Shown here: positions 22,254 to 63,178 of the stretch, one piece after another
How the letters are laid out: each line of letters opens with the position of its first letter
How positions within the stretch are numbered: the stretch's first letter is position 1
Assembly (NCBI GenBank): GCA_964633425.1
Contig: CAZWFX010000004.1
Coordinates: 18,517-82,516, forward strand
From: an uncultured Candidatus Saccharibacteria bacterium
GTDB taxonomy: Bacteria; Patescibacteriota; Minisyncoccia; Phycocordibacterales; UBA2100
Reading direction: 5' to 3'
DNA: 64,000 nt
Program-made: the position numbers and the translations under genes
The notes under the pieces: model-generated
The model's database searches: none
The model's input: the letters and a program-made list of their open reading frames with translations, nothing else
Told to the model about the DNA's origin: nothing

Positions 22254-22328
22254 GTGAATAAACAAATTCTACGATGGCTCTGAGCCCCGCTCACCCATCC
22301 CCCAACGGCGCGGTTCCCCCGCGCTGTT
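22254..22328 (+). repeat. Direct repeat copy B (orphan copy of the gene 3' end + terminator hairpin)
   Basis: Still encodes VNKQILRWL-stop, with two synonymous changes relative to copy A. Abuts the AT-rich cassette. Confidence 0.85.
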
Positions 22329-25037: not shown

Positions 25038-25047
25038 AAAAATACAT

Positions 25048-25075
25048 ATTCTCACATTCTTGAGAATATGAGAAT
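25048..25075 (-). promoter_or_regulatory. 28-bp palindrome copy 1 (putative operator overlapping a promoter)
   Basis: ATTCTCACATTCT-TG-AGAATATGAGAAT, 13-nt arms with 1 mismatch. Identical to copy 3. Confidence 0.6.
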
Positions 25076-25087
25076 GTTTTGTGCCAA

Positions 25088-25121
25088 CAAAAACAAAACG
25101 GCCGCTCATTGCGAGCGGCCG
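25088..25121 (-). terminator. Rho-independent terminator of 25143..25808
   Basis: Stem CGGCCGCTC / GAGCGGCCG with loop ATTGC, followed on the minus strand by TTTTGTTTTTG. Confidence 0.8.
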
Positions 25122-25142
25122 GTCTGCCTATACGGCGAAAGA

Positions 25143-25891: not shown

Positions 25892-25925
25892 ACAAAACAA
25901 AACGGCCGCTCATTGCGAGCAGCCG
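25892..25925 (-). terminator. Terminator-like hairpin after 25946..27085 (near-copy of 25088..25121)
   Basis: Same stem-loop with one mismatch, followed by TTTTGTTTTG on the minus strand. Confidence 0.7.
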
Positions 25926-25945
25926 GTCTGCCTAAAGGCGAAAGA

Positions 25946-27907: not shown

Positions 27908-27943
27908 GCATCTATTCTATCGCACGGCACCTGTACACCACAT

Positions 27944-27971
27944 ATTCTCACATTCTTGAGAATGTGAGAAT
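27944..27971 (-). promoter_or_regulatory. 28-bp palindrome copy 2 (perfect), upstream of the FNR-like gene
   Basis: ATTCTCACATTCT-TG-AGAATGTGAGAAT, a perfect inverted repeat lying 36 nt upstream of the start codon at 27907. Confidence 0.65.
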
Positions 27972-27982
27972 TTCTTTCTCCT

Positions 27983-38953: not shown

Positions 38954-39028
38954 GGCCCTATCGTCTATCGGCTAGGACACGCCCCTCTCACGGGCGAAAG
39001 CGGGGTTCGATTCCCCGTAGGGTCACCA
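38954..39028 (+). tRNA. tRNA-Glu (anticodon CUC), CCA encoded
   Basis: Manual cloverleaf: acceptor GGCCCTA/TAGGGTC, D arm GTCT..GGAC, anticodon arm CGCCC-CTCTCAC-GGGCG, T arm CGGGG-TTCGATT-CCCCG, discriminator A, then CCA. Confidence 0.85.
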
Positions 39029-40706
39029 TCAGGTTTTTATCGGGTACAAATCCCGAAGATAGTTCGAATACTGGGGACAATTTAGGTGTTCCACTAACTA
39101 TTTCTGGATAGGTAGGCATCTTGTCGAATACCAAACCAAATAGATCTCGTAAAGAGCGCGGATCATCAGGGTTTAGCAACAATTCGGCCGGGTGTTCCAT
39201 TACATATCGAGCGTCTTTGATGAATGCTTTTATGTCATGTCTCGAGATCTGTATTTTGAGTCGGATTTTTTGCGCCTCTTTTATCTTTCGGTCGCTCTCC
39301 TCAATTTCTCTTTCAAGTTTCTCTCTAACCACCGCACTTTTTGTGGAGATAAGTAGCCCCAGTTTTGCATCCTGCTCGGCTTCGAGGTCCGCTATATTTT
39401 GGTGAATATCGCCCGACGCTTTCACAATTTCTTTTTCACGTTGTCGGTATTTGTTCATAAAAACCAACTCGAGTGCATTGAGAATATCGGGCTGGAACTT
39501 CAAACTCGAGACATATCTAGTTACTGCTTTTTCAAAGTCTGCTTTTGGTACTCTGAATCCTTTATGATCTCGCGCACAATGATATCCGGGAAACTTCTTC
39601 CCAGACTTGCCTCGTGATGCACTACCCAAAAAGGGTTTTGAGCAATAAGGACAGAGCAGGAACTTGAATGGATACAAAGGGTTGTTCCTTACTCTTACCT
39701 CACCAGTCTTTGAGGAGCGTTTTGCCAACTCAAGACTTCCGTCAGAAGTTTGTTTCAAAATCAATTTCCCGCGATTCGCTCTGTTCCAAAGATCAATACT
39801 AACCAGTCCGTCATACTGCGCTTTTATGGGCTTGAAGTGGGTCCACAATTCACACATAACTCCCGCATAAATTGGATTTTCAATGTATCTCTGGAATTGC
39901 TTTACTGTAAGCGGTTTGCCGCCTCGTTTTGCGATAATCTGCGTGTGTTCTTTGTTCCATCGATTTCGGATTGGTGATCGAAAACCCATAGCATTTACCT
40001 GCGCAACACACTCTTCATCAGTTAGACCACGCGCACGTAGATCAAACATCGCCTGATAAAATAGTGCTCGATCTGGATCTGGAACCTGAATGGTTTTTTT
40101 CTTTCCCTCGACAAATACTTTCTCGTTTTTGTAACCATCCGAAGGAGCGCGTGTACGATAGCCTTGTTGTGCAAGTCGAATCTCTTGTCCTATCATTCGA
40201 TGGAGAATCGTCGTTACTTCTTGCTTTGATGTGGTAGCCAAAACATTTTCAGTGATTTCACTTGGGAAAAACCTGCTCCAGTCATATTCAAAACCTAGAT
40301 CTTCAAGAGTATTTATTGATGGCTGTATAACACCGAGGGTATCAATCATCACTACTCCGTATTTCAGAAGTTCCTTTTTCATCCGATCATACTCACCAGT
40401 ACCAGCACGAGTGAATCTATCTATCGACTTGAATACATAAAAGTTTACGAGCCCAGGATTTTCTTTTATGAACGAAAGTACTTCTTCAAAATCATCACGA
40501 TTAGTTTTTCGTCCAGAAATGGCTCTACCCCATACTTTTCCATGCGGATCATCTTTCGTCTGTGGAACAATAGTCCATCCTCTATCAGATGCGAATCTGC
40601 GTAGACTTTCTTCCTGTCGTTCCAAACTCTCTCCCTCTGATGATTGTTTGAGGGAACTAACTCGACATTGAACTACGCATTTTTTATTTTGTGATGATAG
40701 GTTCAT
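38988..40706 (-). CDS. Large serine recombinase (integrase)
   Basis: 572 aa. Catalytic region CVVQCRVSSLKQSSEGESLERQ, recombinase domain, zinc ribbon CPYCSKPF...YHCARDH, coiled coil. The last ~13 codons are antisense to tRNA-Glu. Confidence 0.85.
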   Translation of the reverse strand: MNLSSQNKKCVVQCRVSSLKQSSEGESLERQEESLRRFASDRGWTIVPQTKDDPHGKVWGRAISGRKTNRDDFEEVLSFIKENPGLVNFYVFKSIDRFTRAGTGEYDRMKKELLKYGVVMIDTLGVIQPSINTLEDLGFEYDWSRFFPSEITENVLATTSKQEVTTILHRMIGQEIRLAQQGYRTRAPSDGYKNEKVFVEGKKKTIQVPDPDRALFYQAMFDLRARGLTDEECVAQVNAMGFRSPIRNRWNKEHTQIIAKRGGKPLTVKQFQRYIENPIYAGVMCELWTHFKPIKAQYDGLVSIDLWNRANRGKLILKQTSDGSLELAKRSSKTGEVRVRNNPLYPFKFLLCPYCSKPFLGSASRGKSGKKFPGYHCARDHKGFRVPKADFEKAVTRYVSSLKFQPDILNALELVFMNKYRQREKEIVKASGDIHQNIADLEAEQDAKLGLLISTKSAVVREKLEREIEESDRKIKEAQKIRLKIQISRHDIKAFIKDARYVMEHPAELLLNPDDPRSLRDLFGLVFDKMPTYPEIVSGTPKLSPVFELSSGFVPDKNLMVTLRGIEPRFRP

Positions 40707-40923
40707 ATGCTTGATCGTCTTTTACAGTATGCGCTTTACGATTTATTTTTTCCAGCCACATATCAAAGTATTTATCTGCAATTCCATCAAGTGCAATAAG
40801 CATCCGGCGTAATTGTTCGTCGGTGTATTTATTTGCTGATGGCCCGAGTGCTTTTTTGAACTCCTCGAACGATGTGGCTGTTTGTTGTATTTCCGGCTCC
40901 ATTGTGGAGCGGATCCAGTACAA
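40684..40923 (-). CDS. Small hypothetical protein upstream of the integrase
   Basis: 79-aa ORF overlapping the integrase start by 23 nt. Could start at the internal MEPEIQQ. Confidence 0.35.
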   Translation of the reverse strand: MYWIRSTMEPEIQQTATSFEEFKKALGPSANKYTDEQLRRMLIALDGIADKYFDMWLEKINRKAHTVKDDQAYEPIITK

Positions 40924-41305
40924 CTAAAAAGGACCCGCAAAGTCCTTCCGAGAAACATATCGGAAGAAATCGCGAGTCCTTTTTCAAGGAGACTCTGGGG
41001 GCGGCGATAACGTTCAAAACCCCATTTATTTAGTTGTGCATAAATTGTATCAAACTTTTTTCTTTTGCAACAATGGCAATTTCCACAATTTTTCGCTATC
41101 ATTGAAGGACAACCGAATATCGGCCCCTTGAGGGCGGGACCTAACCCCGAAAGAGAAATCTATCGGATATGGTCTGAAAGTCGATCAAGCATAGAAAACC
41201 CGTCATGGGGTTGCTTGATCGCCGTATGGGGAAACCTGTACGAGAGGGTTCGCCCTCTACCCGTGGCGGGTTTTCTGTTGCCCGCCATAGGTTTTATTAG
41301 CAAGG

Positions 41306-41755
41306 TTGCTAGCGATCAAGCCAACCATGTTCAAACAAACATACAAACACGATGTTACTTTGCCCGGACGCGGGCTTTACTGGGTATTAGGTGCCATAGT
41401 CGCAGTTCTGGGTTTACTAGCCCTCACAGGCGCGTATTTTGCGAACACGGCCCAAGACTACGATGGGTATACCAAGCCGAAAGCGCAAGAAACGGCAATT
41501 ACCCCAGAAAAGATGCAGAACGGGGTTAGTGCGATGGCAGATTTTATGGTGAAAGATGGGAATGTTGTTGGCCTACGAATGTGGGCGCGATCCCTCGGTG
41601 TTTCTAGTCCGGAGTTCTCAAGTGCCGCAACACTTCGAGAGGAGATCCGTCGTGCCTCAAATGACTTTGCGATCTATCGAGACAAAAACGAGTTATTGAA
41701 ATTGATGCAGTTACTGGGTAATAACGATGCAATTCTCAACGAGGTCGTGAGGTAA
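41306..41755 (+). CDS. Hypothetical membrane-anchored protein
   Basis: 149 aa with one TM helix (GLYWVLGAIVAVLGLLALTGAYF). Confidence 0.45.
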   Translation: MLAIKPTMFKQTYKHDVTLPGRGLYWVLGAIVAVLGLLALTGAYFANTAQDYDGYTKPKAQETAITPEKMQNGVSAMADFMVKDGNVVGLRMWARSLGVSSPEFSSAATLREEIRRASNDFAIYRDKNELLKLMQLLGNNDAILNEVVR

Positions 41756-41756
41756 C

Positions 41757-44033
41757 CTAGAGTTTTTTGAGTTCAGTAAGCACTTCTTCAGAGTTTCCAT
41801 TGTGAACCAAGAAGAAGCGCTGATTTCCTTTACCAAGTTTTTCCCATTCTGTTGCTATCTCAACTTTGTAGGCAGTATCTTCGTTGCTGATGCGATCTTC
41901 GCCTTTCCATTCGAGAGCGACGATTGTTCCTTTTTTAGTTACAGCGACAAAGTCAGGATAAAACTTTCCTTTTTTCCAACCTTGAATGAAGAACGGATCT
42001 ACTTTCTCTCGATTGCGAACCCAGAACTCAATGTTATCTAGCGCACCGAGATCTATGCGTTCAACAAATACTCTTTCCTCTCCGTTGATTCCGTCGATAC
42101 GTTCATAGAGATTTTTATTGAAAACTTTTGGTACCGGAGATTTGAGCGCAATCGTTGAAGGAAACTCCTCAAACAAACCAACAGTAATTTTCTTCTTTGA
42201 AATGAGATCTGCAAATACTTTCTTTGTGTGCTTTTCAAGCACTTCGCTGATAGCAACCGAAAGACGGTCCGCGAGAAGATAGCGATTTACTGATAGTTCA
42301 GGTAGGGATCGTTTATGCTTCTTGATTTGATTGTTTATGGCCTTCTCTATGAAGGCGTTTTTATCCTCCGGAGTAACCATTGGGAAGCGTAGTTTCTTAT
42401 CTAGCCACGTTACCAGTTCATCCTGTGAGTGTTCTCCGTCCAGATATTGATATGGTAGTGAGAGTTGCTTGCCTTGTAGCCACTCATTCTCTTCAGTGAT
42501 ATCGATTGTGGCTTGGCCGTCGAGATCATAGTGTATTTTGAAATCGAAATCAGCATCTTGCTTTGCTAGTTCAAAATCATCAGCCAAAAGGTCCTCAAAT
42601 GATAGTTTGTTTTTACCGATTGCCATCATTGGGACCTGCAACTTCTTCTTGATTGCTTTTTTTGCTTCGAGGGGATCAGAGTACGTTTCTTCTTCAGTTA
42701 CACCGACAAAATCGCTGCGGCTGTATCCGTTATCTTCGAGTCCCTTGATCACCTTTGATGCTGCCTCGTTGAAGTTTGCTGCGGATGCAAACACATAACT
42801 TCGATTGAGTGCCTCGTCTGCTTTTTTCTTTGCGTTAGGCATACGGATCACACGGCCGATGATCTGCTCGACTGCAACTTTTGCGCCGAGATTCGCGACC
42901 GATATGAGGACGTAAGCATAGGAACAGTCCCAACCTTCCGCAAGGGCGTTTACGGTGAGGATGTATCGCACATCGCATTTCTTATCGAACAAATCAATTC
43001 CTTCGAGTTCGTCGACTTCTGATGTTTTGATCTTGATTTGTTCTTCCGGGATCTTCTTGTCGAGCAACATCTGCTTCAACGCTTCGACGGTAACCGTCGC
43101 TTTGGTTTTGCTCTTTGGTTGTGCTTGGAGAAGTGCAATAGGGCGGATCTTTTCTCCTTTGAGTTTTTCTGCACGCTTCTCCAATTCGTTGCGCTTCATG
43201 ATTCCGTCGGAAACAACTTGCTCCCATTGTGTGCGACTCTCAAGAACAATCGGGATTTTTACCATCTCCTCGATCTTTAGTTCTGATGCACTTGTGTGGA
43301 CGAGCACGTTGCTGCCATCTCGGGGAGTAGCGGTAAACTCGATGATAAATGACGGCTTGAGATCAGACAGGAACGAAATAGAAAGATCTGTCTGTGTGTG
43401 GTGGCCCTCGTCGATTACGATGAGAGGATTGTTTTTTCTAATCACGTTTGCGAGTGAGTTGATTACTTCACCCGCAGAGTCTTTTTCCAAAGCAGATACA
43501 TCTTTCAAGTTCTGGAAGTGGTCCATCAAGGCACCGTTTTCCTTGTAGACTTTGTACTTGTTTTGGATCTTGGCTTCCTTTCGGAAAGCATCGAGGCTCG
43601 CAACGATAATGCAGAGATTGTTTCGAACGTCCTCCGGCGTGATAGCCAGTGCCTCCTCGTTTGAAAATACTTTGAACTTCGTATCGAATGAGTCATTCAA
43701 GACTTCAAAATGTAAATCCTTTGGATCACGAAGTTTCTTGAGAGTTTGTGTTTTTATTGAGTCCGAAGGAACGAACCACATGACAATTCCTGTATCCATC
43801 TTGTTCTGAAGGATAGTCGACATGATTCTCTCAACAGATTTACATGCGACCAGGGTTTTACCTGCACCTGTAGGCATACGAAGGCACACAAAAGGCACGT
43901 CGTTGAACCACTGGTGATTGTAGTTTTTCTCGGTGATCTCGTTGAAAGCATGTCGTGCTTTCATTTTCTTGAGTAGTCCCAAGAACTGGTCGAGAGTATC
44001 TATCGCATTTTGTTGGTAGGTTTTGAACTTCAT
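41757..44033 (-). CDS. res: Type III restriction enzyme Res subunit (SF2 helicase + PD-ExK nuclease)
   Basis: 758 aa. Motif I MPTGAGKT, motif II VIDEGHH, motif III FTATP, motif VI QIIGRVIRM. C-terminal YPDF...ALEWKGE fits PD-(D/E)xK. Confidence 0.85.
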   Translation of the reverse strand: MKFKTYQQNAIDTLDQFLGLLKKMKARHAFNEITEKNYNHQWFNDVPFVCLRMPTGAGKTLVACKSVERIMSTILQNKMDTGIVMWFVPSDSIKTQTLKKLRDPKDLHFEVLNDSFDTKFKVFSNEEALAITPEDVRNNLCIIVASLDAFRKEAKIQNKYKVYKENGALMDHFQNLKDVSALEKDSAGEVINSLANVIRKNNPLIVIDEGHHTQTDLSISFLSDLKPSFIIEFTATPRDGSNVLVHTSASELKIEEMVKIPIVLESRTQWEQVVSDGIMKRNELEKRAEKLKGEKIRPIALLQAQPKSKTKATVTVEALKQMLLDKKIPEEQIKIKTSEVDELEGIDLFDKKCDVRYILTVNALAEGWDCSYAYVLISVANLGAKVAVEQIIGRVIRMPNAKKKADEALNRSYVFASAANFNEAASKVIKGLEDNGYSRSDFVGVTEEETYSDPLEAKKAIKKKLQVPMMAIGKNKLSFEDLLADDFELAKQDADFDFKIHYDLDGQATIDITEENEWLQGKQLSLPYQYLDGEHSQDELVTWLDKKLRFPMVTPEDKNAFIEKAINNQIKKHKRSLPELSVNRYLLADRLSVAISEVLEKHTKKVFADLISKKKITVGLFEEFPSTIALKSPVPKVFNKNLYERIDGINGEERVFVERIDLGALDNIEFWVRNREKVDPFFIQGWKKGKFYPDFVAVTKKGTIVALEWKGEDRISNEDTAYKVEIATEWEKLGKGNQRFFLVHNGNSEEVLTELKKL

Positions 44034-44034
44034 G

Positions 44035-45552
44035 TTAGTAGACTTTTATTTCGTATGGAATTTGCTTGAAGGTAATACCTTTCGACGCTAACTCATCCTC
44101 ATCAACAAGGCAGCGGTCCGCATAGATCACAGCCTGTCCGGTTATTTTGAGTTTTGCGAGCGCTTCTCGAGTGAGATCGTTCTTGTTCTTTCCAGTGTAT
44201 AGGAGATAGTAGGAAGTGCCATTGTTATCTCCAATGACTGGTGCCTTTATGTTTTTCTTCACCACATTTGTGTGTGTTTCGGTAAAGTAAATGTACGTAG
44301 CAAGTTCTTCGTAAGTACACTGATCGTTGATCTGTCCTTTCTCATTGAATAGGGGTTGCCCAAGACGGATATACTCAAAACCATCCGAATATGAGTATTT
44401 CTTCGACACTCTCTTTAGTCGTTCCGCTGTAATGTTTTTTGCTACATCGTCCTCAAGTTCAACAAGGATAAATTGTCGATTTGATCCATTTTTGTTTAGT
44501 TCCATCACTGCATGTCCTGTGGTACCAGATCCCGCAAATGAATCGAGAACAATCGAGTCATCATACGAAGATATCTTGATCAGGTGTTGGATGAGTTCAA
44601 TCGGTTTGGGGTTATTGAAAACTTCCTGCTTACCAAAAATGTCGGCAAGCATTTTGGCTGCGGAATCTGTTGAGCCATAGTTATCCAAGATGTTCGGTTG
44701 CGCTGAATATGTATCCTTGTCCTCAAAGTCATAGATTTTGAGTTTGATTACTCCCTTATCGTTGATGAAGCGACCTCGCTTTTCCAACTCCTGTGCTTTT
44801 TCTTGCCCAATTTGCCACCGCTTACCATTTCGCGGCTTTATTCCTAGAATTGGAAATTGCATTGATGCTCTTTCGTAGTCCCCAGCGTTCTTTTTTTCAA
44901 TGATAGTGAGTCTGTAAGAACCCTCTTTATCTTTATGAGGATAGTCTCGAGACTCTTTTGAAGTTACTCGAGGAAACAACCTACCACTAGAAGTTTTTGA
45001 GTAACAAATCTGATAATCAAAAAGTGAACTGACCTGTACTCCAGCAACATTTGTCGATGTTCCTTTCTTCTTCCAAATAAAACTTGTGATGAAGTTTTTG
45101 GCACCGAATATCTCATCCATCAAAAGTCGGAAATGGTGATTTTCATTGTCATCAAGACTAACAAAAATAACACCGTCGTCTGACATAAGATCCCTGATAA
45201 GTTTCAGTCGAGGGTACATCATGCATAGCCATTTATCATGACGGGTAAGATCTTCGCCCTCACGACCAACAACTTTTTTTATCCAGTCAGCAATTTTTGG
45301 TGAGTTCACTCTATCGTTGTAAACCCAATTTTCGCTACCTGTGTTATATGGAGGATCAATGTAGACGCATTTTACTTTACCCTTGTAGAAAGGCACTAGA
45401 GCCTTGAGTGCCTCGAGATTATCACCATTTATGAGGAGGTTCTTTGATTCGTTCTTCGCAGAGACAGATGCCACTTTTTCAAGCAATTTGAAAGGAACCT
45501 CCTTATCGTGGTTCACTACCGCATCTTTTCCAATCCAATTTAGTGTTGCCAT
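44035..45552 (-). CDS. mod: Type III R-M Mod subunit (beta-class N6-A/N4-C DNA methyltransferase)
   Basis: 505 aa. Motif IV VYIDPPYN precedes motif I DSFAGSGTTGHA. Stop lies 1 nt before the res start. Confidence 0.85.
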   Translation of the reverse strand: MATLNWIGKDAVVNHDKEVPFKLLEKVASVSAKNESKNLLINGDNLEALKALVPFYKGKVKCVYIDPPYNTGSENWVYNDRVNSPKIADWIKKVVGREGEDLTRHDKWLCMMYPRLKLIRDLMSDDGVIFVSLDDNENHHFRLLMDEIFGAKNFITSFIWKKKGTSTNVAGVQVSSLFDYQICYSKTSSGRLFPRVTSKESRDYPHKDKEGSYRLTIIEKKNAGDYERASMQFPILGIKPRNGKRWQIGQEKAQELEKRGRFINDKGVIKLKIYDFEDKDTYSAQPNILDNYGSTDSAAKMLADIFGKQEVFNNPKPIELIQHLIKISSYDDSIVLDSFAGSGTTGHAVMELNKNGSNRQFILVELEDDVAKNITAERLKRVSKKYSYSDGFEYIRLGQPLFNEKGQINDQCTYEELATYIYFTETHTNVVKKNIKAPVIGDNNGTSYYLLYTGKNKNDLTREALAKLKITGQAVIYADRCLVDEDELASKGITFKQIPYEIKVY

Positions 45553-45554
45553 AG

Positions 45555-45731
45555 TTATTTTGTGCTGGTTCCTTTCATAAAGCGCTCAAACTCTTCTCGC
45601 TCAATCCGGAACTCTTTGCCGATCTTATAGGCTTTGAGTCGCTTGGCTTTGATGTATCGGTAGATCGTCATCACGTTCACCGATAGCAATTCAGCCAACT
45701 CTTTTGCGGTGTAATACGCCTTTTCTGCCAT
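45555..45731 (-). CDS. Excisionase-family helix-turn-helix DNA-binding protein
   Basis: ORF 45555..46178 trimmed to MAEKAYYTAKELAELLSVNVMTIYRYIKAKRLKAYKIGKEFRI (58 aa), a typical excisionase/MerR-like HTH. Ends 2 nt before the mod start. Confidence 0.7.
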   Translation of the reverse strand: MAEKAYYTAKELAELLSVNVMTIYRYIKAKRLKAYKIGKEFRIEREEFERFMKGTSTK

Positions 45732-45791
45732 ACAGAAATGATACTTTACTTTTGTTGACATTACAATCACCACAGGAGTAACATTTCCACT

Positions 45792-47267
45792 ATGTTCCAA
45801 CCTAAAGCAGGAAGAAATGATCCTTGTCCTTGTGGAAAAAAGAAGCCCCACGGTGATTCCATCAAGTACAAAAAATGCTGCTTGTCGAAAGATGAGCAAA
45901 GAGCAAAACTTCAAGAGCGAGTAAAAAATGTTACTCGTGCTGACTTTGTAGGTGGTCCATATAAGAAATGCCCAAAATGCGGCAAAAAGACCTTTGGTGT
46001 TTGGATTGGCACAGGTGGTAATGGTTACTCTCGAGAGTGTACGACCTGTTGGCACAAACAGGGTTTCAAATTGCCAAAGATAAAAAAGAAAATCGTCTAT
46101 CTCGATCAGTTTTTGATAAGCAACATGACAAAAGCCCTCGACAAAAACGCGAGGAGCCATGCGGCAGTAATGACTCAACCTTTTTGGCTAGAAGCATATA
46201 AGAAACTGGATCGTCTTTACATGATGAATCTGATTATCTGTCCGGACTCATCCTTTCATACGAATGAGTCACTTTTATCAGGCGATCCACCTTACAAATC
46301 ACTGAAAAAAGTTTACGAGAGGCTTTCAGATGGATGTACCTTCTATGACCACCACACGATTGAGCGATTCCAAGTTCAGCAACATTTCAAGAACTATTTG
46401 GATGGAGACCCTGCAAAAACACTTGAACTCATTGTTGAGAACGTGGTTCATGGCCGACTTCACGAATGGCTTGGCAGAATGGGTGTACGTGTAAACATGC
46501 GCCCATATGACGGGCAACTCGAAGCGGTGCATAAAGAAAGAAACTCACTGTACGAATCAATGAAAAGTATCTTTGCTCGTTGGCAAAGTGAAAAAGATAA
46601 GAAGTTTGATGATTGGTTCAAGGAAGAGGGCTATGCTTTTGGAAAAGGTACGATTCAAGCGCACTTGAAGTTCTTACAGAAACAGGACGATTTTATGAAA
46701 AAGTATGCCACTGAATACGTAGACGGAAAGGAGCCCGAAGTAGACCTTGATAGCGTGTTACCTCCGGCATCGAGTGAACTTATACAGGCTTTATTGCGCG
46801 AACTACGTGGTCGAGGAATCGATGGATCCGATGCAATAAAGAAAATCATTGAATACCTTTCTTCTCAATACGTTCTCGATATTCCGTCTATTCGGATTTC
46901 TTCATTGCTGTACGCAAGTATCGCTCGTAAAGCAGCAAACGGACAAAAAGAACCGCCAAACAAAGGTACTTTTACAGACATAAATGCCATCTCAAGCCTG
47001 TTGCCTTATTGTGATGCGATGTTTGTCGATAATGGAATGGCGGCGCTACTAAAAGAAAGTCCACTAAACAAAGAACTTGCGGTTTATGCTGCTAAAGTTT
47101 TTAGTCCAAATACGAAGGAGGAGTTTCTTCAGTATCTTGACTCGTTAGAACAGGAGGCCGATCCTTCGCACCTAGAACTAATCCAAGATGCTTACGGCGA
47201 GACTTGGCTTGAGCCACACTTGAGTCTTTTGGAAAAGAACCCACTCGATGATGAGGAAGACGAGTAG
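45792..47267 (+). CDS. SEC-C motif + zinc-ribbon protein of unknown function
   Basis: 491 aa. N-terminal RNDPCPCGKKKPHGDSIKYKKCC (SEC-C-like), then CPKCGKK...CTTCWH. The large remainder is unrecognised. Acidic C-terminal tail DDEEDE. Confidence 0.65.
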   Translation: MFQPKAGRNDPCPCGKKKPHGDSIKYKKCCLSKDEQRAKLQERVKNVTRADFVGGPYKKCPKCGKKTFGVWIGTGGNGYSRECTTCWHKQGFKLPKIKKKIVYLDQFLISNMTKALDKNARSHAAVMTQPFWLEAYKKLDRLYMMNLIICPDSSFHTNESLLSGDPPYKSLKKVYERLSDGCTFYDHHTIERFQVQQHFKNYLDGDPAKTLELIVENVVHGRLHEWLGRMGVRVNMRPYDGQLEAVHKERNSLYESMKSIFARWQSEKDKKFDDWFKEEGYAFGKGTIQAHLKFLQKQDDFMKKYATEYVDGKEPEVDLDSVLPPASSELIQALLRELRGRGIDGSDAIKKIIEYLSSQYVLDIPSIRISSLLYASIARKAANGQKEPPNKGTFTDINAISSLLPYCDAMFVDNGMAALLKESPLNKELAVYAAKVFSPNTKEEFLQYLDSLEQEADPSHLELIQDAYGETWLEPHLSLLEKNPLDDEEDE

Positions 47268-47694
47268 AAGTCGATCGTTGATAAAGCAATAAAGTTTCAT
47301 TTTGTTCGACCTCTAACCTTGGGGTCAACTCCTCTGCAAAAAACATTGCCATGTCCCACTTGAGAATTGAGTTTGCCGCGGCAAGTCGTTCCATTGTTGA
47401 AGAGTCTTTTTCTTCTAGGATTAGGGCTATTTTCTTTGTAATGACTCGGTGTCTTTCCTTCAGATTTATCAATCTCTCTGTGCGGCTTTGACATGACAGT
47501 TCCGCAAGGTTTTCTATTCGAACCTTTTTCATTAGTCTCGCTACGTAATGCCAGTCGAGTTCTCCGCGCAGAGATTGGTAACCTTTCAGGTAAAGCGCAT
47601 TACGAACTTGTGCCACGGACTTGAGGGGAAAGAGTGCGATCTCATCGCGAATCGCTCGCTTGATCAGTTCTTCAATTTCTTTTGGCTTTCTCAT
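47101..47694 (-). CDS. Hypothetical protein (3' portion overlaps convergent gene; extent uncertain)
   Basis: 197-aa ORF. The first ~135 aa have plausible helical composition. The last 167 nt overlap 45792..47267. Confidence 0.4.
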   Translation of the reverse strand: MRKPKEIEELIKRAIRDEIALFPLKSVAQVRNALYLKGYQSLRGELDWHYVARLMKKVRIENLAELSCQSRTERLINLKERHRVITKKIALILEEKDSSTMERLAAANSILKWDMAMFFAEELTPRLEVEQNETLLLYQRSTSTRLPHHRVGSFPKDSSVAQAKSRRKHLGLVLGAKDRPPVLTSQDTEETPPSYLD

Positions 47695-47883
47695 GTTCGT
47701 GTTTATTCGTGGTTTTGCTCGCTCGCTACACTACGTTCCATACCCTGATAGGTAATGTCTTTTGTCTCGATTGATTCTGAAAAATGGCTAAACCACATGC
47801 GTTTGTGATAGCATTAGATAACTCGGATTGAGGGTTTGGAACACCGTTTTCCATTTCAAAACTAGGTTTTCTATGGTGTTCCA

Positions 47884-47906
47884 TTCAAATCCCTCCGGGC
47901 TCACAA
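47884..47906 (+). other. tRNA 3'-end-like fragment (T loop + 3' acceptor strand, no 5' half)
   Basis: TTCAAATCCCTCCGGGCTCACAA, followed by the same hairpin/trailer repeat found after intact tRNA genes. No complementary 5' acceptor strand lies upstream. Confidence 0.4.
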
Positions 47907-48060
47907 AAACACCAAGAAACCTGCACTGCTGCAGGTTTCTGCGGTTTTTGGGAAGACGGAGGCATGTTTTGCCAGCAGGCAAAACGGCCGAGTCCGGGGC
48001 TGGAAAATTTTCGAGCGGCGGCGAGAAAATTATTGTGGCTCACAAGACACTTCACGCCGA
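47907..48060 (+). repeat. tRNA-trailer repeat, diverged copy
   Basis: Terminator hairpin AAACCTGCA/TGCAGGTTT, then H1 GTTTTGCC-AGCA-GGCAAAAC and H2 AATTTTC-GAGCGGCGGCGA-GAAAATT. Homologous to the reverse complement of 60749..60894. Confidence 0.7.
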
Positions 48061-51330: not shown

Positions 51331-51636
51331 CTATTCATCCTTGGCCGGCTTCAGAGCCGAGAATTCGTCGATAAACTTCATAAAAATCTTTCCGTAGCGA
51401 GACAGTTTGTGGCGCACATCCCTCCCCTCATGAACCTTTTCTATGAGTCCGGCGAGCGCGAGACGGCGCGTGTGCTCGGAGATGGTTTTGAGATTGGCGT
51501 TGAGGCCGTCTGCAATCGCAAGCAGTGAGTCGTTGGGATGCGCGCGAAGGTGGAACAAAATTCTGATACGCGTGTGGTTGGCCACACCCTTGAAGTGGCG
51601 TTCGAGTTTCTTGGGACCTTTTGTTGACAGAGCCAT
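51331..51636 (-). CDS. ArsR/SmtB-family transcriptional regulator
   Basis: 101 aa. FKGVANHTRIRILFHL...IADGLNANLKTISEHTRRLALAGLIEK is a typical ArsR winged HTH. Confidence 0.8.
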   Translation of the reverse strand: MALSTKGPKKLERHFKGVANHTRIRILFHLRAHPNDSLLAIADGLNANLKTISEHTRRLALAGLIEKVHEGRDVRHKLSRYGKIFMKFIDEFSALKPAKDE

Positions 51637-51644
51637 CCGTACAT

Positions 51645-51672
51645 ATTCTCACATTCTTGAGAATATGAGAAT
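51645..51672 (-). promoter_or_regulatory. 28-bp palindrome copy 3, 8 nt upstream of the ArsR-family start codon
   Basis: ATTCTCACATTCT-TG-AGAATATGAGAAT. On the coding strand it reads ...TGTGAGAAT-ATGTACGG-ATG, so an extended -10-like element sits 8 nt before the ATG. Confidence 0.65.
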
Positions 51673-51695
51673 GTAACGAAACGAAAACGGCCGCA

Positions 51696-59936: not shown

Positions 59937-60560
59937 TTACTTGAGTTCGAATCCGAAGAGGCGCTCGAGTGCATTGAGCGATCCCGGCACCACATTGAAA
60001 ATAATCGGGAGTGCAAACAGAACATACGCTGTGTGGATGGATACGAACGCCATCCCGATACCGATAAGCGTAAAGAGCGGCGTGACCATCTGACGAATCT
60101 TTGCCTGTTTAATGAGTCTCGACGACACCTCGGTGGTGTCGATCTCGTCGGAAGAGAGTGCGTAGTTGAAGATAATCACATTCAGTACGCCGATGAGAAA
60201 GACATTGACCCCGTACACCGCAACCGCGAGCGGAATATCCTGATAGATATCAAGCACGCGAGCGGAAAACGGAATAAGCGAGATGAGCGCCAGATACGTG
60301 AGGTTCAAGATCACAAGCACGCGGTTGATATTTTTGGCAAAAACGGAGTACAGAAAATTGTGCCCGATCCAAAACATGGTGAGAACGACAAAACTCAAAA
60401 AGAATTCCACCAACGTGGGCACCAGCTCTATGAGCGCACGCGCAAGCGAAGCCGAGGTTTTGATCAATTCTGTATCCGGGATCTTTACATCAAATACGAG
60501 CAACGTAAGCACGATTGCAAAAAGGCCGTCTGACAGATTTTCGAGTCGAGTTTTGTTCAT
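59937..60560 (-). CDS. TMEM175/DUF1211-family membrane protein (putative K+ channel)
   Basis: RLENLSDGLFAIVLTLLVFD is the family signature. About 6 TM helices. Confidence 0.75.
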   Translation of the reverse strand: MNKTRLENLSDGLFAIVLTLLVFDVKIPDTELIKTSASLARALIELVPTLVEFFLSFVVLTMFWIGHNFLYSVFAKNINRVLVILNLTYLALISLIPFSARVLDIYQDIPLAVAVYGVNVFLIGVLNVIIFNYALSSDEIDTTEVSSRLIKQAKIRQMVTPLFTLIGIGMAFVSIHTAYVLFALPIIFNVVPGSLNALERLFGFELK

Positions 60561-60748
60561 TGCGGATATACTATCAAATTTTCATGTATGTGGTGGGCCA
60601 TCATCCGCGGTGACTCATCTCGCGGGTGGCAATACCACCTGGGAAACCCTCGGTTTTCCCATTCCTTCCTCCACGGGAAAACAGCATGTTTTCCCGACCC
60701 CTTTCTGGGTCTGGTCCACAATCCGAAAAAGTCTGCCGCAGGGCGGCA

Positions 60749-60894
60749 TTTATTTGTGGGTCACAGATAATTTCCTCGCCGCCGCTCGGAAATTTCTCTG
60801 ACCACGGCTCGCCCGTTTTGCGTGCTCGCAAAACATGGCTCCGCCCGTCCACAAACCGAAAAAGTCTGCCGCAGGGCAGACTTCTTCGTGTTTG
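60749..60894 (-). repeat. tRNA-trailer repeat, copy downstream of tRNA-Ala(GGC)
   Basis: 146 bp with 1 mismatch to 62882..63027. On the tRNA strand: terminator hairpin GTCTGCC-ctgc-GGCAGAC+TTTTT, H1 GTTTTGCG-AGCA-CGCAAAAC, H2 AATTTCC-GAGCGGCGGCGA-GGAAATT, H3 TGTG-acc-CACA. Confidence 0.85.
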
Positions 60895-60967
60895 TGGACC
60901 ATACCGGAATCGAACCGGTCACCTCTTCCATGCCATGGAAGCGCTCTACCAAATGAGCTAATGGCCC
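60895..60967 (-). tRNA. tRNA-Ala (anticodon GGC)
   Basis: Manual cloverleaf: acceptor GGGCCAT/ATGGTCC with G3:U70, anticodon arm CTTCC-ATGGCAT-GGAAG, T arm ACCGG-TTCGATT-CCGGT. No encoded CCA. Confidence 0.85.
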
Positions 60968-61004
60968 GTAACGCGGACCATCGTATCAAAACTTATCGCG
61001 AACG

Positions 61005-61505
61005 CTACATCGCCTGAGGGTCCGTTATCGCCGGCGGATGCGAAAGGCATTGCTTGAGAGAGTCCGATTCGGTCCACCCGCACTTTCCGCTTGCCTGAAT
61101 TTCGCAGGTCGCCTCGCGATAGCACGCATACTCCGGTCGGAACTCGCAGGTAGAAACTCCCCCGCCGTTCGCCGCCTCTTCGGCCGATATACAGAGCTGC
61201 ATTGAACAGCCGGATACCGCGCACCCATTGCTCACAACACCTGTTTGCGGAGGAGGCATATGCGAAACAGTCTGTGCATCATTGGTGAATGTGCGACCGT
61301 CGGGCGTTGCGCACTGTTCCGGAGATGACTCCATGATCGGGTAGCCCGCTCGTTTGCATTCTTCGAATGTGGAAATGCCATACATTTCCTGCTGTTTGGC
61401 GATGTTTGAGAGTGAGAGCATGAGCCCGGCGATAAGCGCGAGCACGACGGCCAAACCGAGGAGCATGGGAATACTGGTCTGTTTGTGAGCGGTCTCGCCT
61501 TCCAT
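61005..61505 (-). CDS. Membrane-anchored Cys-rich hypothetical protein
   Basis: 166 aa with an N-terminal TM helix (IPMLLGLAVVLALIAGLMLSL) and multiple Cys in the ectodomain. Confidence 0.5.
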   Translation of the reverse strand: MEGETAHKQTSIPMLLGLAVVLALIAGLMLSLSNIAKQQEMYGISTFEECKRAGYPIMESSPEQCATPDGRTFTNDAQTVSHMPPPQTGVVSNGCAVSGCSMQLCISAEEAANGGGVSTCEFRPEYACYREATCEIQASGKCGWTESDSLKQCLSHPPAITDPQAM

Positions 61506-61569
61506 ATATGCATTGTATCAGACGTTGATTTTTGGAACTTCTTTCCGAAGCCGCTATAATCCCGCGTAC

Positions 61570-61643
61570 GCACCTTTAGCTCAGTTGGTTAGAGCGTTCG
61601 ATTCACATTCGAAAGGCCTCAGGTTCGAATCCTGAAAGGTGCA
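61570..61643 (+). tRNA. tRNA-Val (anticodon CAC)
   Basis: Acceptor GCACCTT/AAGGTGC, D arm GCTC..GAGC, anticodon arm TTCGA-TTCACAT-TCGAA, T arm TCAGG-TTCGAAT-CCTGA. Confidence 0.85.
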
Positions 61644-61790
61644 CCGTGCACAGAAAACCTGCCCTGCGGCAGGTTCTCCGGCCTGCACCGGCCGGAGCGC
61701 TGTGAGCCCAGCGGGTCGAACCGAGAGGCGGGGTCGCGAAAATTATTGAGCGGCGGCGAGATCATTATTCGTGACCACTGGATGTTTTCC
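61644..61790 (+). repeat. tRNA-trailer repeat, degenerate copy downstream of tRNA-Val
   Basis: Terminator hairpin AACCTGCC-ctgc-GGCAGGTT, then GAAAATTATTGAGCGGCGGCGAGATCATTATTCGTGACCAC, which retains the GAGCGGCGGCGA core. Confidence 0.6.
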
Positions 61791-61906
61791 TGCTAGGATA
61801 CGTGGCGATGAGATTTTTTGTCGGGCGAAAACCGACAAGGGTTTCTCTGGAGTCTTTTTGCCGGACTGTCCGGCTTGCACATTGCAGATCAGTAAAGTCT
61901 TTTAGC

Positions 61907-61980
61907 CGGGCTGTAGTATACCGGTAGTACGCACGCTTCGGGTGCGTGTAGACTGGGTTCGATTCCCAGCAGCCCGACCA
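61907..61980 (+). tRNA. tRNA-Pro (anticodon CGG), CCA encoded
   Basis: Acceptor CGGGCTG/CAGCCCG (C1:G72, as in bacterial tRNA-Pro), anticodon arm CACGC-TTCGGGT-GCGTG, T arm CTGGG-TTCGATT-CCCAG, then ACCA. Confidence 0.8.
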
Positions 61981-62097
61981 AAAGACTGTACTGTAGTGCG
62001 TGTAGACGGGTCGTGCGGCGCTACGCGCGCTCGCGCCTCACCCTGCAACTCGACACGAAAGATTCCTGAGGCCCGACAAAAGATCTCATCGATAATG

Positions 62098-62171
62098 CGG
62101 GCTGTAGTATACCGGTAGTACGCATGGCTGGGGGTCATGTAGACCGGGTTCGATCCCCGGCAGCCCGACCA
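62098..62171 (+). tRNA. tRNA-Pro (anticodon GGG), CCA encoded
   Basis: Same acceptor and D arm as the first tRNA-Pro, anticodon arm CATGG-CTGGGGG-TCATG, T arm CCGGG-TTCGATC-CCCGG, then ACCA. Confidence 0.8.
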
Positions 62172-62355
62172 TAATCCTCCGAAACGTGCGCCGGGAATCT
62201 CCGGGTTCGAGTCACGCATCATTCGCTGCTGCGAATGTACGCAACCCCGACTCGCGCCGCCGCGCTCCGTCTCTTGCGCCCTTCCCGACCCAGGGCGCAA
62301 GCCCGGCAGCCCGACAATTTGACTAAACTCTAATAGTGTGGCTATATAGCGCTCT

Positions 62356-62838
62356 ATGGTGATCGTACCCATATGGATGCGTGTGATTCTCGCTGCCGGC
62401 CTATGCTTCGCTGCGGGCGCTATTGCCGCGCTGCATATGACCAATCAGTCACTTGGCTACTTTGGATCACTTGATCGTCCGCTATTTTTTGCAATGCCGA
62501 TTCCGGTCATCTTTTTCGCACTCATTGTTACCTACGCGATCATTTCCATCGCATCAGCGCTCATGTGGATCCACGATCCGCGTCCGTGGGATTTCCGCGG
62601 TTGGGTGCCGCTCTTCTTTACACACCTGCTTCTGCAGGTGGGGTGGCTCATACTCCTGTTCGCATACAACGTCGTGTTTGTCGCAATGCTGATCGCATTC
62701 GTGCTTGCGACCTACGTGTTCATCCTGACCGCAGCCGCATGGGAACGCAGCAGGATCGCCTTTTGGCTTTTACTCGTGTACTTGGCGTGGACACTCTACG
62801 CACTCGGCATGAATATCGCCGTGTGGGGTGTTAACTAA
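62356..62838 (+). CDS. TspO/MBR-family membrane protein (second paralog)
   Basis: 160 aa, five TM helices, Trp-rich (PRPWDFRGWVPLFFTHLLLQVGWLILLF...WTLYALGMNIAVW). Confidence 0.65.
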   Translation: MVIVPIWMRVILAAGLCFAAGAIAALHMTNQSLGYFGSLDRPLFFAMPIPVIFFALIVTYAIISIASALMWIHDPRPWDFRGWVPLFFTHLLLQVGWLILLFAYNVVFVAMLIAFVLATYVFILTAAAWERSRIAFWLLLVYLAWTLYALGMNIAVWGVN

Positions 62839-62881
62839 CATTGTGGGTCACAAATCACAAAAACCTGCTGCAGAGCTGGTT

Positions 62882-63027
62882 TTTATTTGTGGGTCACAGA
62901 TAATTTCCTCGCCGCCGCTCGGAAATTTCTCTGACCACGGCTCGCCCGTTTTGCGTGCTCGCAAAACATGGCTCCGCCCGTCCACAAACCGAAAAAGTCT
63001 GCCGCAGGGCAGACTTTTTCGTGTTTG
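62882..63027 (-). repeat. tRNA-trailer repeat, copy downstream of tRNA-Ala(CGC)
   Basis: 146 bp, 145/146 identical to 60749..60894, although the two adjacent tRNA-Ala genes themselves differ substantially. Confidence 0.85.
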
Positions 63028-63098
63028 TGGACCTATCGAGAATCGAACTCGAGACTGTGCAATGCGAATGCACCGGTATACCACTTACCTATAGGCCC
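63028..63098 (-). tRNA. tRNA-Ala (anticodon CGC)
   Basis: Acceptor GGGCCTA/TAGGTCC with G3:U70, anticodon arm GTGCA-TTCGCAT-TGCAC, T arm TCGAG-TTCGATT-CTCGA, 4-nt variable loop. No CCA. Confidence 0.75.
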
Positions 63099-63148
63099 GT
63101 TGACGAGAAAATATACCACTCTCTCCTCGAAACAAAAAGTGTATATAA

Positions 63149-63178
63149 CAAAAACCTCCGCTTTCGCGGAGGTTTTTG
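63149..63178 (-). terminator. Rho-independent terminator of greA
   Basis: AAAAACCTCCGC-tttc-GCGGAGGTTTTT. Confidence 0.8.

Follow-up and report, generated by a model that had tools for sequence, protein, structure and literature searches.

The repeats that follow several tRNA genes in the window (the whole stretch of 64,000 nucleotides analysed here) belong to a module of 130–180 bases with a strong fold, apparently undescribed so far, that is found across the tiny-genome Patescibacteria. More than 140 copies were gathered from Saccharibacteria, Paceibacterota and metagenomes, and the plan of the unit is the same throughout: X (the 3′ end of a gene), hp (a terminator-like hairpin), X′ (an inverted X), a core of 87 nt, and X once more. 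We give about an even chance to the reading that we favour, namely that these units are small (~130–180 nt), non-autonomous, target-copying insertion modules of tRNA and tmRNA 3′ ends and of a few protein genes, Patescibacteria-wide and also carried on tRNA read-through transcripts.

The window contains four full copies and a relic (Table 1). The full copies stand behind tRNA-Ala(GGC), tRNA-Ala(CGC), tRNA-Val and an orphan 3′ fragment of a tRNA. The preliminary description had reported nearly identical segments behind the two tRNA-Ala genes despite divergent tRNAs, and these coordinates and identities hold: positions 60749–60894 and 62882–63027 agree at 145 of 146 nucleotides (sole mismatch at 60884), whereas the two genes match at only 47 of 73 positions. 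The more diverged copies behind tRNA-Val and the orphan fragment were borne out as well, as a covariance model scores all four cores at 82–94 bits, with ~18 bits on the antisense strand of the window copies against 94 bits on the sense strand. The 13-mer GAGCGGCGGCGAG occurs exactly four times (0.23 expected). In the Ala-GGC core, hairpin H1 reads GGAG..AUGU-stem-AGCA-stem..CGAG and the long hairpin H2 reads GGUCAGAG-AAAUUUCC-GAGCGGCGGCGAG-GGAAAUU-AU-CUGUGACC, and the X′ of this unit, GTTTGTGGAC, can pair either with the upstream X (P1) or with the downstream X (P0).

Table 1. Coordinates of the units and associated tRNA genes in the window.
Feature	Position	Strand	Basis
tRNA-Ala(GGC)	60894..60967	-	ARAGORN, Rfam tRNA
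X of Ala-GGC unit, last tRNA bases and trailer (GTCCACAAAC); 5′ strand of long hairpin P1	60890-60899	-	
hp of Ala-GGC unit 1, terminator-like: A-tract, GUCUGCC stem, CUGC loop, U-tract	60857..60889	-	fold, terminator scan
X′ of Ala-GGC unit (GTTTGTGGAC), inverted copy of tRNA 3′ end and trailer	60847..60856	-	fold, coordinates
Core of Ala-GGC unit, 87/88 nt: PJ helix, H1, H2	60759..60846	-	cmsearch 93.7 bits, covariation
Repeated X of Ala-GGC unit (CCACAAAT), direct copy of tRNA end; 3′ strand of closing stem P0	60752..60759	-	
Second hp and X′ frame (unit 2) behind tRNA-Ala(GGC)	60714..60751	-	repeat family D3, alignment with L027
Hairpin-rich filler, ~120 nt, unmatched by covariance model	60594..60713	-	fold, L027 alignment
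tRNA-Ala(CGC); X at 63023-63032	63027..63098	-	ARAGORN
hp (62990-63022) and X′ (62980-62989) behind tRNA-Ala(CGC)	62980..63022	-	fold, terminator scan
Core behind tRNA-Ala(CGC), same sequence as Ala-GGC core	62892..62979	-	covariance model
X repeat (62885-62892), then coreless 'empty' unit: degenerate hp (62858-62884), X′ and X (62840-62855)	62840..62892	-	
tRNA-Val(CAC)	61570..61645	+	ARAGORN
hp (61649-61678, CUGC loop) and X′ (GCCTGCACCGGCC) behind tRNA-Val	61646..61693	+	fold
Core behind tRNA-Val, decaying copy	61690..61776	+	covariance model
Orphan X, tRNA fragment from T-loop to 3′ end (47884-47910), hp (47913-47941), X′ (47944-47953)	47884..47953	+	
Orphan-fragment core (47954-48041) and X repeat CTCACAAGAC (48039-48048)	47954..48048	+	covariance model
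Short relic or variant core without long H1, AGCA apex	62210..62272	-	cmsearch 34.9 bits

Of the partial tandem unit with hairpins that had been proposed beyond the Ala-GGC copy (60600–60748), the near part stands as a second hp and X′ frame, and the remainder is unrelated filler, which occupies the slot where the 90%-identical relative L027 has a second full core. L027 also has a truncated core at the place of the 'empty' unit behind tRNA-Ala(CGC). The tRNA-Val core shares 88% identity with its L027 orthologue, whose apex is mutated, and is missing at the same site in L039, L043 and L045. The closest relatives of the orphan-fragment core stand behind tRNA-Glu in other genomes, and the fragment itself is not an intron-containing tRNA, as ARAGORN with introns allowed finds no tRNA there. 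The relic is inverted relative to tRNA-Pro(GGG), and its whole insert is flanked by two copies of the tRNA-Pro 3′ end (62156–62169 and 62302–62315).

The core folds into a three-helix junction that is supported by very strong covariation. Paired cells of the alignment make up 86.5%, compared to 65.8% after shuffling and 32–48% in slid controls; 476 cells show double changes (151 shuffled), and these are distributed over 23 of the 26 pairs, the middle pair of PJ alone occurring as CG (36), GC (29), AU (13) and UA (4). On four of five measures none of the shuffles came up to the observed value; on pair types, 2 of 500 did. The compensatory changes first described in H1 and H2 were confirmed, and more than 120 additional copies show them too. 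Pairing in H2 amounts to 96–98% (96.5% across 88 distinct sequences), so that substitutions do not break the helices as often as they preserve them. The proposed third hairpin H3 (TGTG-nnn-CACA) had to be abandoned as a conserved helix, its 5′ half being the base of H2 and its 3′ half the repeated gene end, and the identity of the loops holds within one subfamily only; among copies sampled independently of the apex, the tip of H2 is usually C-G(A/G/U)CG-G. One pair is G·U in 84 of the 88 sequences, which fixes the tRNA-sense strand as the structured strand, and the core fold forms only on this strand. Compensatory pairing on a single strand above controls, as found here, is the generic mark of a structured RNA or single-stranded element.

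The conserved core sequence opens with ..AG-GNC-GGAG and closes with GUGACC. The motif GNC-G-GA-GCG / CGC-GA-GNC resembles a kink-turn in its tandem GA but has a one-nucleotide bulge only, where a kink-turn has three bulged nucleotides, and in the alignment its first G is a C in several copies. The conserved strands, mapped by eye, fit neither the hammerhead nor the hairpin ribozyme nor the kink-turn; GGUCAGAGAAAUU resembles a hairpin-ribozyme loop, in one copy only. Neither ARAGORN nor the Rfam tRNA model called a tRNA or tRNA-like cloverleaf on the units. We give virtually no credence to a small protein-coding gene: an ATG-initiated frame is present in the Ala copies (28 codons through H1–H2) and in the orphan copy, but the alignment refutes coding, as the Val copy lacks an ATG and has its frame broken by an indel, the lengths of H1 and H2 vary by non-multiples of three, and the substitutions lie in compensatory pairs rather than at synonymous sites.

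The spread of the family and its linkage to tRNAs were determined from two samples, 47 covariance-model hits from 29 sources (nearly all genome loci) and 93 hits in 80 metagenome contigs collected with an apex-independent pattern. A same-strand tRNA or tmRNA lies at most 120 nt upstream of the core in 32 of the 47 and in 58 of the 93 hits; for the copies as a whole, some 70–80% are situated 24–114 nt (median 48) behind such a gene. With a chance rate of ~2.4%, estimated from 151 tRNAs in 376 kb, the linkage is ~25-fold over chance, and together with the covariation this upholds the original suggestion that a conserved element under structural constraint is linked to the 3′ flanks of tRNAs. The targets include more than 15 types of tRNA, tmRNA is the target in L028, L034 and L066, and some units stand behind protein genes instead. 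The core is conserved across whole classes of Patescibacteria, and the CUGC loop of hp is present in 62 of 119 family members. Nearest neighbours among the cores share the tRNA type in 10 of 82 cases (8.6% by chance); cores therefore sort independently of tRNA type, and attP-like lineages, each pre-adapted to one tRNA, are rejected.

The impression that the family had not been described before was sustained by the searches. At the gathering thresholds of Rfam 15, only tRNAs and one LOOT RNA located elsewhere pass in the window, and at E ≤ 10 the cores in 60500–63150 are overlapped only by chance-level miRNA and lncRNA hits. A literature search found no description of the element.

The sequences flanking the core always match the local gene. 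The repeated X is identical to its own tRNA end over at least 12 nt in 20 of 80 units (control 0.06%), and X′ is complementary to its own tRNA end over at least 8 nt in 56 of 80 (control 10%). X and X′ are copied from the local target and do not travel with the core sequence. Many units have exact junctions: X′, which closes with ...TYGAA, stops at the base complementary to T54, and C56 or G57 is the first base of the repeated X, with 16 of 27 repeats of at least 8 nt starting at T-loop position 56/57, directly abutting the core end GAC|C. In other units the junction is at the discriminator base. The repeated X spans the T-loop to the 3′ end, including CCA where it is encoded (L002), and then stops; the direct repeat varies from ~3 nt (tRNA-Val) to 19–29 nt. 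A palindrome arising from a replicated hairpin-capped break was rejected, since successive hairpins keep the CUGC loop and not its complement.

The hp part has the form of a predicted intrinsic terminator, a G+C-rich stem-loop followed by a U run. A consensus terminator scan reported 11 terminators against 3.2 expected and picked up the hairpins of hp, for the most part on the strand opposite to the tRNA-Ala genes (62990–63021, 60862–60883) and at 60734–60748 on both strands. These hairpins, bidirectional and placed between convergent genes, and the participation of the gene end in the long P1 hairpin would suit a composite transcription terminator or insulator for tRNA genes that spread by duplication together with them. 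We nevertheless regard this as very unlikely, since termination can do without a conserved three-way junction and without a repeated gene end, core sequence is not correlated with tRNA type, and the Ala units are identical though their tRNAs differ at 26 of 73 positions, from which it follows that the units did not spread with the tRNA. The X-hp-X′ arrangement is not the native terminator style of these genomes either, since tRNA ends pair with downstream sequence only where a core is present.

A host-selected structured trailer RNA is the main rival to target-copying insertion, and we consider it possible but on balance doubtful. Here the tRNA promoter would read through hp, the continuous X′/X helix would imitate the acceptor and T stems of the adjacent tRNA in their stacked form (a minihelix in which the core replaces the T-loop), trimming by RNase P and by RNase Z or the CCA enzyme would give the RNA defined ends, and a mature RNA of ~100–130 nt would bind a conserved protein or act in tRNA maturation or quality control, tandem arrays representing multi-copy genes. 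Precedents for tRNA-linked RNAs exist in 3′ETS-leuZ, mascRNA, plant tRNA-snoRNA and MHV68 tRNA-miRNA precursors, which like the module lie in the tRNA precursor or trailer in the orientation of the tRNA, and a tRNA-like helix could give defined ends here too. Known tRNA-linked RNAs are, by contrast, single loci without target duplications, tandem arrays or decay, and to our knowledge none of them has the core of the module. The strand-specific structure with its conserved G·U and covariation, the strict tRNA orientation and tight distance, the conservation of the core across classes of the phylum and the extent of the repeated X, with CCA where encoded, all fit a trailer RNA. So do the predicted energies: P0 is stronger with cognate (-14.4 kcal/mol) than with non-cognate flanks (-10.2 kcal/mol), and a 138-nt unit folds into hp and a P0-closed three-way junction at -72 kcal/mol. 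Against this, a strong terminator-like hairpin stands between promoter and core, occupancy is patchy in close relatives with decaying or truncated copies, and units also follow protein genes. X′ would moreover pair with the real tRNA 3′ half, which would be harmful in a precursor; it covers trailer bases but not CCA, and it is a perfect complement instead of the tRNA 5′ strand (A:U70 versus G·U70 in tRNA-Ala). Finally, such a function gives no reason for a stem to copy its neighbour's sequence. Between the trailer RNA, the host processing signal and the miniature element targeting tRNA trailers that had been offered at the outset, the evidence favours the miniature element, leaving some room for a purely host processing signal.

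Syntenic loci, obtained through homologues of the Cys-rich protein neighbouring the window's GreA (an exact-protein look-up returned no exact copy of this GreA on record), show patchy occupancy. At tRNA-Val, L039 has an empty site, and the window, L027 and L041 carry an insert that begins directly after the discriminator. The same tRNA-Ala-CGC carries different core variants, arrays mix subfamilies, perfect tandem arrays occur (3.5 × 134 nt and 3 × 137 nt), and among close relatives some copies are visibly decaying or truncated, as in the Val copy while the Ala copies remain identical. The Ala units are 100% identical to their counterparts in L027, between genomes that are ~10% divergent elsewhere, next to other identical blocks of 200–320 nt in the same region; this identity could reflect purifying selection instead of recent spread, and similar cores at different targets could stem from gene conversion instead of transposition. 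No recurrent protein family was found beside the modules within the fetched stretches (up to 8 kb) around 25 loci, nor any linked recombinase, transposase or reverse transcriptase, and viral contigs searched with the apex pattern gave 0 hits.

A direct repeat that starts in the T-loop or at the 3′ terminus and stops shortly beyond the gene is the classic signature of tDNA integration (PMC4383910). As in the tRNA/tmRNA genomic islands and prophages of the Islander definition (PMC4383910), the gene is intact, its displaced 3′ fragment forms a direct repeat at the far end, and tandem accretion occurs at one site. The module differs in comprising only 130–180 nt without an ORF or integrase gene inside the repeats, in its inverted target copy and folded core, and in serving more than 15 tRNAs with one core. 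That the units are scars of integrase-driven islands, attL/attR remnants left behind tRNA genes after interior deletion, is highly improbable. An island does adjoin one copy in the window, but its recombinase is of the serine type and it is located upstream of the orphan X, outside any unit; att arms, moreover, do not show such covariation, whereas the same folded 87-nt core recurs at more than 140 sites in many lineages, without an integrase inside or beside the units and without viral hits, and X′ would be left unexplained.

In genomic behaviour, the closest analogue of the module would be the RAYT-mobilised REP/BIME and REPIN repeats, which are likewise short, abundant, strand-specifically folded and situated just 3′ of genes, are often clustered or in tandem, act as terminators or stabilisers and show presence/absence polymorphism. 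REPs, however, are simple palindromes of 20–40 nt with a conserved 5′ tetranucleotide, species- or genus-specific and with a cognate RAYT gene that REPs flank, whereas the module has an 87-nt three-way junction plus a separate hairpin, is phylum-wide, targets tRNA/tmRNA ends with flanks copied from the target, and has no RAYT-like neighbour in the stretches around 25 loci. With MITEs such as Correia/NEMIS, RUP and BOX it shares a non-autonomous, structured, multi-copy nature and a length of 100–200 nt, and these too can carry terminators. In MITEs the terminal inverted repeats belong to the element and the target duplication is short and of fixed length, while X′/X is the sequence of the local tRNA end, a different one at each locus, and the length of the direct repeat varies between ~3 and 29 nt. 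Of the earlier caveat that the element might be a known MITE or REP, inverted and direct repeats do exist, but each target supplies its own, and the element fits no known family.

Group IIC introns land 3′ of terminator hairpins, and self-splicing introns have internal guide or exon-binding sequences. Like these, the module contains a segment complementary to the flank just upstream of its insertion point (X-loop-X′ resembling a P1 helix) and adjoins a terminator hairpin; unlike them, its 87 nt lack group I/II catalytic domains and a reverse transcriptase gene, and splicing is unnecessary as the tRNA is complete. According to a paper on tRNA introns in Patescibacteria, which does not describe the element, the phylum has TnpB-like genes but lacks group II introns. 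A similar topology is seen in CTXphi attP(+) at dif and the integron attC (PMC3442271, PMC3089051, PMC4792948), in which a strand-specific hairpin mimics or aligns with the target, tandem arrays form, and circle integration yields the order seen in the module: target, rest, inverted copy, loop, target. X′ and X pair across the 87-nt core, as do the two inverted target-like segments ~90 nt apart in CTXphi, a match of topology only. These systems have one fixed target and known recombinases (XerCD, IntI), whereas the stem of the module changes with each target; attC itself was rejected, as RYYYAAC/GTTRRRY is absent and the module boundaries are ...TYGAA|AG.. and ..GUGAC|C.

On the favoured reading of target-copying insertion, the module would spread as a single-stranded nucleic acid, either sense-strand RNA or ssDNA, for which folded ssDNA provides precedent (PMC3442271, PMC4792948). 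Its folded core would be recognised by a trans-acting enzyme, and the X′/X stem would be either the product of a target-templated step or a duplex aligning the element with its target. A small circle (hp, X′, core and X) with a folded X′/X stem might recombine with X to give X-hp-X′-core-X, by analogy with the topology of CTXphi attP(+) or integron attC; the circle analogy alone leaves the re-templating of X′ for each new tRNA unexplained. The hairpin would provide the tRNA with a terminator again, and in transcripts that read through it the core would be present as a trailer RNA. We know of no mechanism that yields an inverted and a direct target copy around an insert, so that the key step is a conjecture. 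The near-invariant G·U, the tandem G·A-type motifs and the terminator-like hairpin are RNA-like and fit a host-selected RNA equally well. Bolder, and in our view unlikely, is the idea of a new kind of small nucleic acid that propagates itself and has the core as its folded active part. It would be a minicircle or viroid-like RNA of ~135–180 nt that homes to the T-loop or 3′ terminus of any tRNA or tmRNA gene and rebuilds its closing stem by target copying. Insertion would then be target-templated, guide-like and possibly ribozyme-assisted, without known counterpart, and integrated rolling-circle products would account for the perfect head-to-tail arrays, which end in a truncated unit.

Patescibacteria have tiny genomes with little intergenic DNA, yet many of their tRNA and tmRNA genes are trailed by one or several modules. 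A covariance model of the core would improve annotation, as the units confuse the calling of tRNA ends, terminators and island boundaries, and would also provide a marker of strain-level variation. If the module is a host RNA, it would be among the most widespread uncharacterised structured RNAs of the group, tied to tRNA maturation. If it is mobile, it would be a rare mobile element in the Patescibacteria radiation with an unprecedented signature, an insert between an inverted and a direct target copy with T-loop junctions exact to the nucleotide, which would point to a target-templated or guide-like mechanism.

The repeat family behind the tRNA genes of the window is real. As the preliminary description had noticed, 145 of the 146 bases 3′ of the two tRNA-Ala genes match; the tRNAs themselves agree at only 47 of 73 positions. 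The diverged copies that it placed behind tRNA-Val and, at 47.9 kb, behind an orphan 3′ fragment of a tRNA are likewise present. The 13-mer GAGCGGCGGCGAG has four exact occurrences (0.23 expected), and every copy folds much more stably than shuffled sequences, with z-scores of −9.6, −8.9 and −6.1 for three copies and −2.6 for the Val copy. ARAGORN found six tRNAs in total (Table).

Scanning one genome per species with the pattern ATTNNNGAGCGGCGGCGAGNNNATT returned 38 loci. Patescibacteria account for 26 of these (Saccharibacteria, Paceibacterota, Taylor-, Nomura- and Giovannonibacteria, Minisyncoccia), among them the orthologous region (L027) in a Saccharibacteria genome that shares ~90% identity with the window, and the other 12 look like chance matches, mostly in apparent coding sequence. 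The covariance model proposed in the preliminary description was built for the core, the three-helix part consisting of PJ, H1 and H2, and identified 47 copies; these come from 29 sources, almost all of which are genome loci. A second, apex-independent pattern matched at least 120 metagenome contigs; the 80 of these that were analysed contain 93 core copies. Viral contigs gave zero matches to an apex pattern of the module. Rfam has no family matching it and our literature searches gave no description of it, in agreement with the preliminary description, which did not recognise it as a described family.

The core has a conserved, strand-specific fold over 87 model positions. PJ is a short helix (G-N-C/G-N′-C) with the middle pair CG in 36, GC in 29, AU in 13 and UA in four copies. 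H1 (GGAG..AU-stem, AGCA-like loop, stem..CGAG) forms a hairpin in nearly all copies, some with an internal tandem GA, and H2 reads GGUCG(C/U)G-variable stem-tip-stem-C(G/C)UGACC. Counted over 88 distinct metagenome sequences, 86.5% of the cells pair (65.8% in shuffles, 32–48% with slid partners), both partners have changed in 23 of 26 pairs, H2 is paired at 96.5%, and one pair is G.U in 84 sequences; the genome set agrees with this. Because of the G.U pairs and a covariance score of 94 bits for the sense versus ~18 for the antisense direction, the structure is assigned to the tRNA-sense strand. A small ORF is an unlikely explanation of the segment. The identical loop noted earlier holds as a trait of one subfamily, but not family-wide, the general tip being C-G(A/G/U)CG-G, and the family has no helix corresponding to the proposed H3.

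The association with gene 3′ ends is precise. Among the genomes, 32 of 47 cores follow a same-strand tRNA or tmRNA at a distance of no more than 120 nt, and 37 at no more than 450 nt, through arrays. The metagenomes have 58 of 93 cores within 120 nt (median 48 nt), the remainder being in arrays (nine), at contig ends (nine) or without a tRNA (17). By our own estimate from 151 tRNAs in 376 kb, chance would place ~2.4% of cores within 120 nt. The targets include over 15 types of tRNA as well as three tmRNAs. In a Saccharibacteria genome (L003), a module follows a tRNA with anticodon UUA (“tRNA-Stop” by ARAGORN), which may be a suppressor or recoding tRNA.

The order of the unit is everywhere X, hp, X′, core, X. 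X comprises the last 5–29 nt of the upstream gene plus a few trailer bases. A few units, at loci L026, L035 and L038, lie behind a small conserved protein gene that is convergent with ksgA and ends in MMGSSQ and the stop, and there the repeated X includes the stop codon. The hairpin hp (A-tract/stem/U-tract) has a CUGC loop in 62 of 119 units and was flagged as terminator-like by a consensus scan; that the module is a plain terminator is unlikely. X′ is X inverted and has two possible partners: with the upstream X it can form a long hairpin (P1), with the downstream X a helix (P0) by which a three-way junction including PJ/H1 and H2 is closed.

Both the inverted and the direct repeats derive from the target. 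In 80 tRNA-adjacent units, the downstream X is identical to the end of the unit's own tRNA over at least 8 nt in 27 (control 4%) and in 20 the identity extends to 12 nt or more (control 0.06%); 16 of these 27 repeats start at T-loop position 56/57, directly abutting the GAC/C of the core. X′ is complementary over at least 8 nt in 56 units (control 10%); in the T-loop class its end coincides exactly with the complement of T54 (…TYGAA/AG-GNC). The Ala and Val units of the window have their junction at the discriminator and trailer (CCACAAA; CAC). Downstream pairing of the tRNA 3′ end is confined to tRNAs with a core (−16.8 versus −11.7 kcal/mol), and X′ therefore belongs to the unit. This restriction to core-bearing tRNAs ruled out X′ as a native terminator style. 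The reading as an insertion element, set out below, competes mainly with a host trailer RNA, in which the X′/X stem would mimic the acceptor/T helix of a tRNA and lead to trimming by tRNA enzymes. This rival accounts for RNA-like features and for conservation across the phylum, but gives no reason for a stem that copies its neighbour and leaves patchiness, decay and the intervening terminator unaccounted for.

Units turn over. Occupancy is patchy in loci that have GreA, TspO, a Cys-rich protein and the tRNA cluster in common. The window, L027 and L041 carry a unit at tRNA-Val, a site that is empty in L039; the insert is hp-X′-core from directly after the discriminator, with a repeat of at most 3 nt. 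The core at tRNA-Ala-CGC of L039 is a rearranged variant whose repeat, 19 nt long, is of the T-loop type; the window has the 3′-end type there. Between window and L027 the Ala units are identical and the Val unit is 88% identical, with a mutated apex in L027. Behind Ala-CGC, the window has an empty slot and L027 a truncated one; behind Ala-GGC, the second slot of L027 is occupied by a full core and that of the window by an unrelated filler. This hairpin-rich filler lies within the hp-X′ frame, and its 3′ part (GAGTCACCGCGG) is similar to the 3′ end (GAGTCACGCC) of variant modules that follow tRNA-Ala and tRNA-Pro in L039. This similarity suggests that another, related family of cores exists. 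Subfamilies are mixed in some arrays (L031); those of L054 and L088 are perfect head-to-tail repeats. Nearest-neighbour cores share a tRNA type at no more than the chance rate (10 of 82 cases; 8.6% by chance), and cores 92–95% identical occur at tRNA-Ser, tmRNA and an orphan site with flanks specific to each locus; the flanks are therefore target-derived and the core exchangeable. No recurring protein family was found beside the units, within stretches of up to 8 kb around each of 25 loci. Island scars are an unlikely origin.

Further elements of the window are collected in the Table. In a relative (L017), only ~900 nt take the place of the island, and GGTGTTCCA lies near both island ends (39086, 47876). 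The repeat with the palindrome may represent an operator or a further small element. The block identical to L027 stands amid 85–90% identical coding sequence and suggests recent recombination between the two lineages.

Coordinates of features in the window and in other loci
Feature	Position	Strand	Remark
Two-copy repeat	21532-21624, 22249-22341		93 nt, 89%; terminator-like hairpin in each
Repeat with perfect palindrome ATATTCTCACATTCTTGAGAATATGAGAAT	25020-25080, 27916-27976, 51617-51677		different repeat family
Two-copy repeat	25090-25130, 25894-25934		41 nt, 98%; terminator-like hairpin in each
tRNA-Glu-CTC	38954		ARAGORN
Island	38988-47880		~8.9 kb; between tRNA-Glu(CTC) and orphan tRNA 3′ fragment
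Large serine recombinase	38988-40706	−	island gene
LOOT RNA (Rfam RF03000)	41138-41258	+	71.6 bits, full length; between two small ORFs in island
Type III restriction helicase	41757-44033	−	island gene
DNA methylase	44035-45552	−	island gene
HTH_17 protein	45555-46178	−	island gene
Block 100% identical to L027	58894-59192		298 nt
Filler	60594-60713	−	~120 nt
tRNA-Ala-GGC	60894-60967	−	ARAGORN
tRNA-Val-CAC	61570-61645	+	ARAGORN
Two tRNA-Pro	61907 and 62098		ARAGORN
Spacer of the tRNA-Pro genes; region after tRNA-Pro(GGG)	61981-62097; 62172-62327		96–100% identical to L027 (adjoining genes 10–15% different); each bracketed by repeats of tRNA-Pro 3′ end (CCCGAC; CCCGGCAGCCCGAC)
Inverted relic core	62210-62272		within 62172-62327
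tRNA-Ala-CGC	63027-63098	−	ARAGORN
tRNA (UUA), L003	1213-1286	−	followed by module
Module behind MMGSSQ gene, L035	3870-4268	+
Array at tRNA-Arg, L054	9574-9928	−	3.5 × 134 nt; last unit cut inside H1
Array at tRNA-Ile, L088	3034-3393	−	3 × 137 nt

We infer that the module would be a non-autonomous insertion element handled as a single strand. The extent of the direct repeat equals that of classical tRNA-gene integration (PMC4383910), and the order X-rest-X′-loop-X is the expected product of a folded single-stranded circle integrating (PMC3442271, PMC4792948), but neither process accounts for an X′ that matches every new tRNA. Such an insertion element and the host trailer RNA could also both apply, as a mobile element that is in addition expressed as a trailer RNA. 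The family is real and apparently undescribed; REP/MITE-like structured repeats and tDNA-integrating elements are nearest to it in kind but differ from it in architecture, and it is conceivable, though rather improbable, that the module represents a new, target-templated mechanism of mobility.
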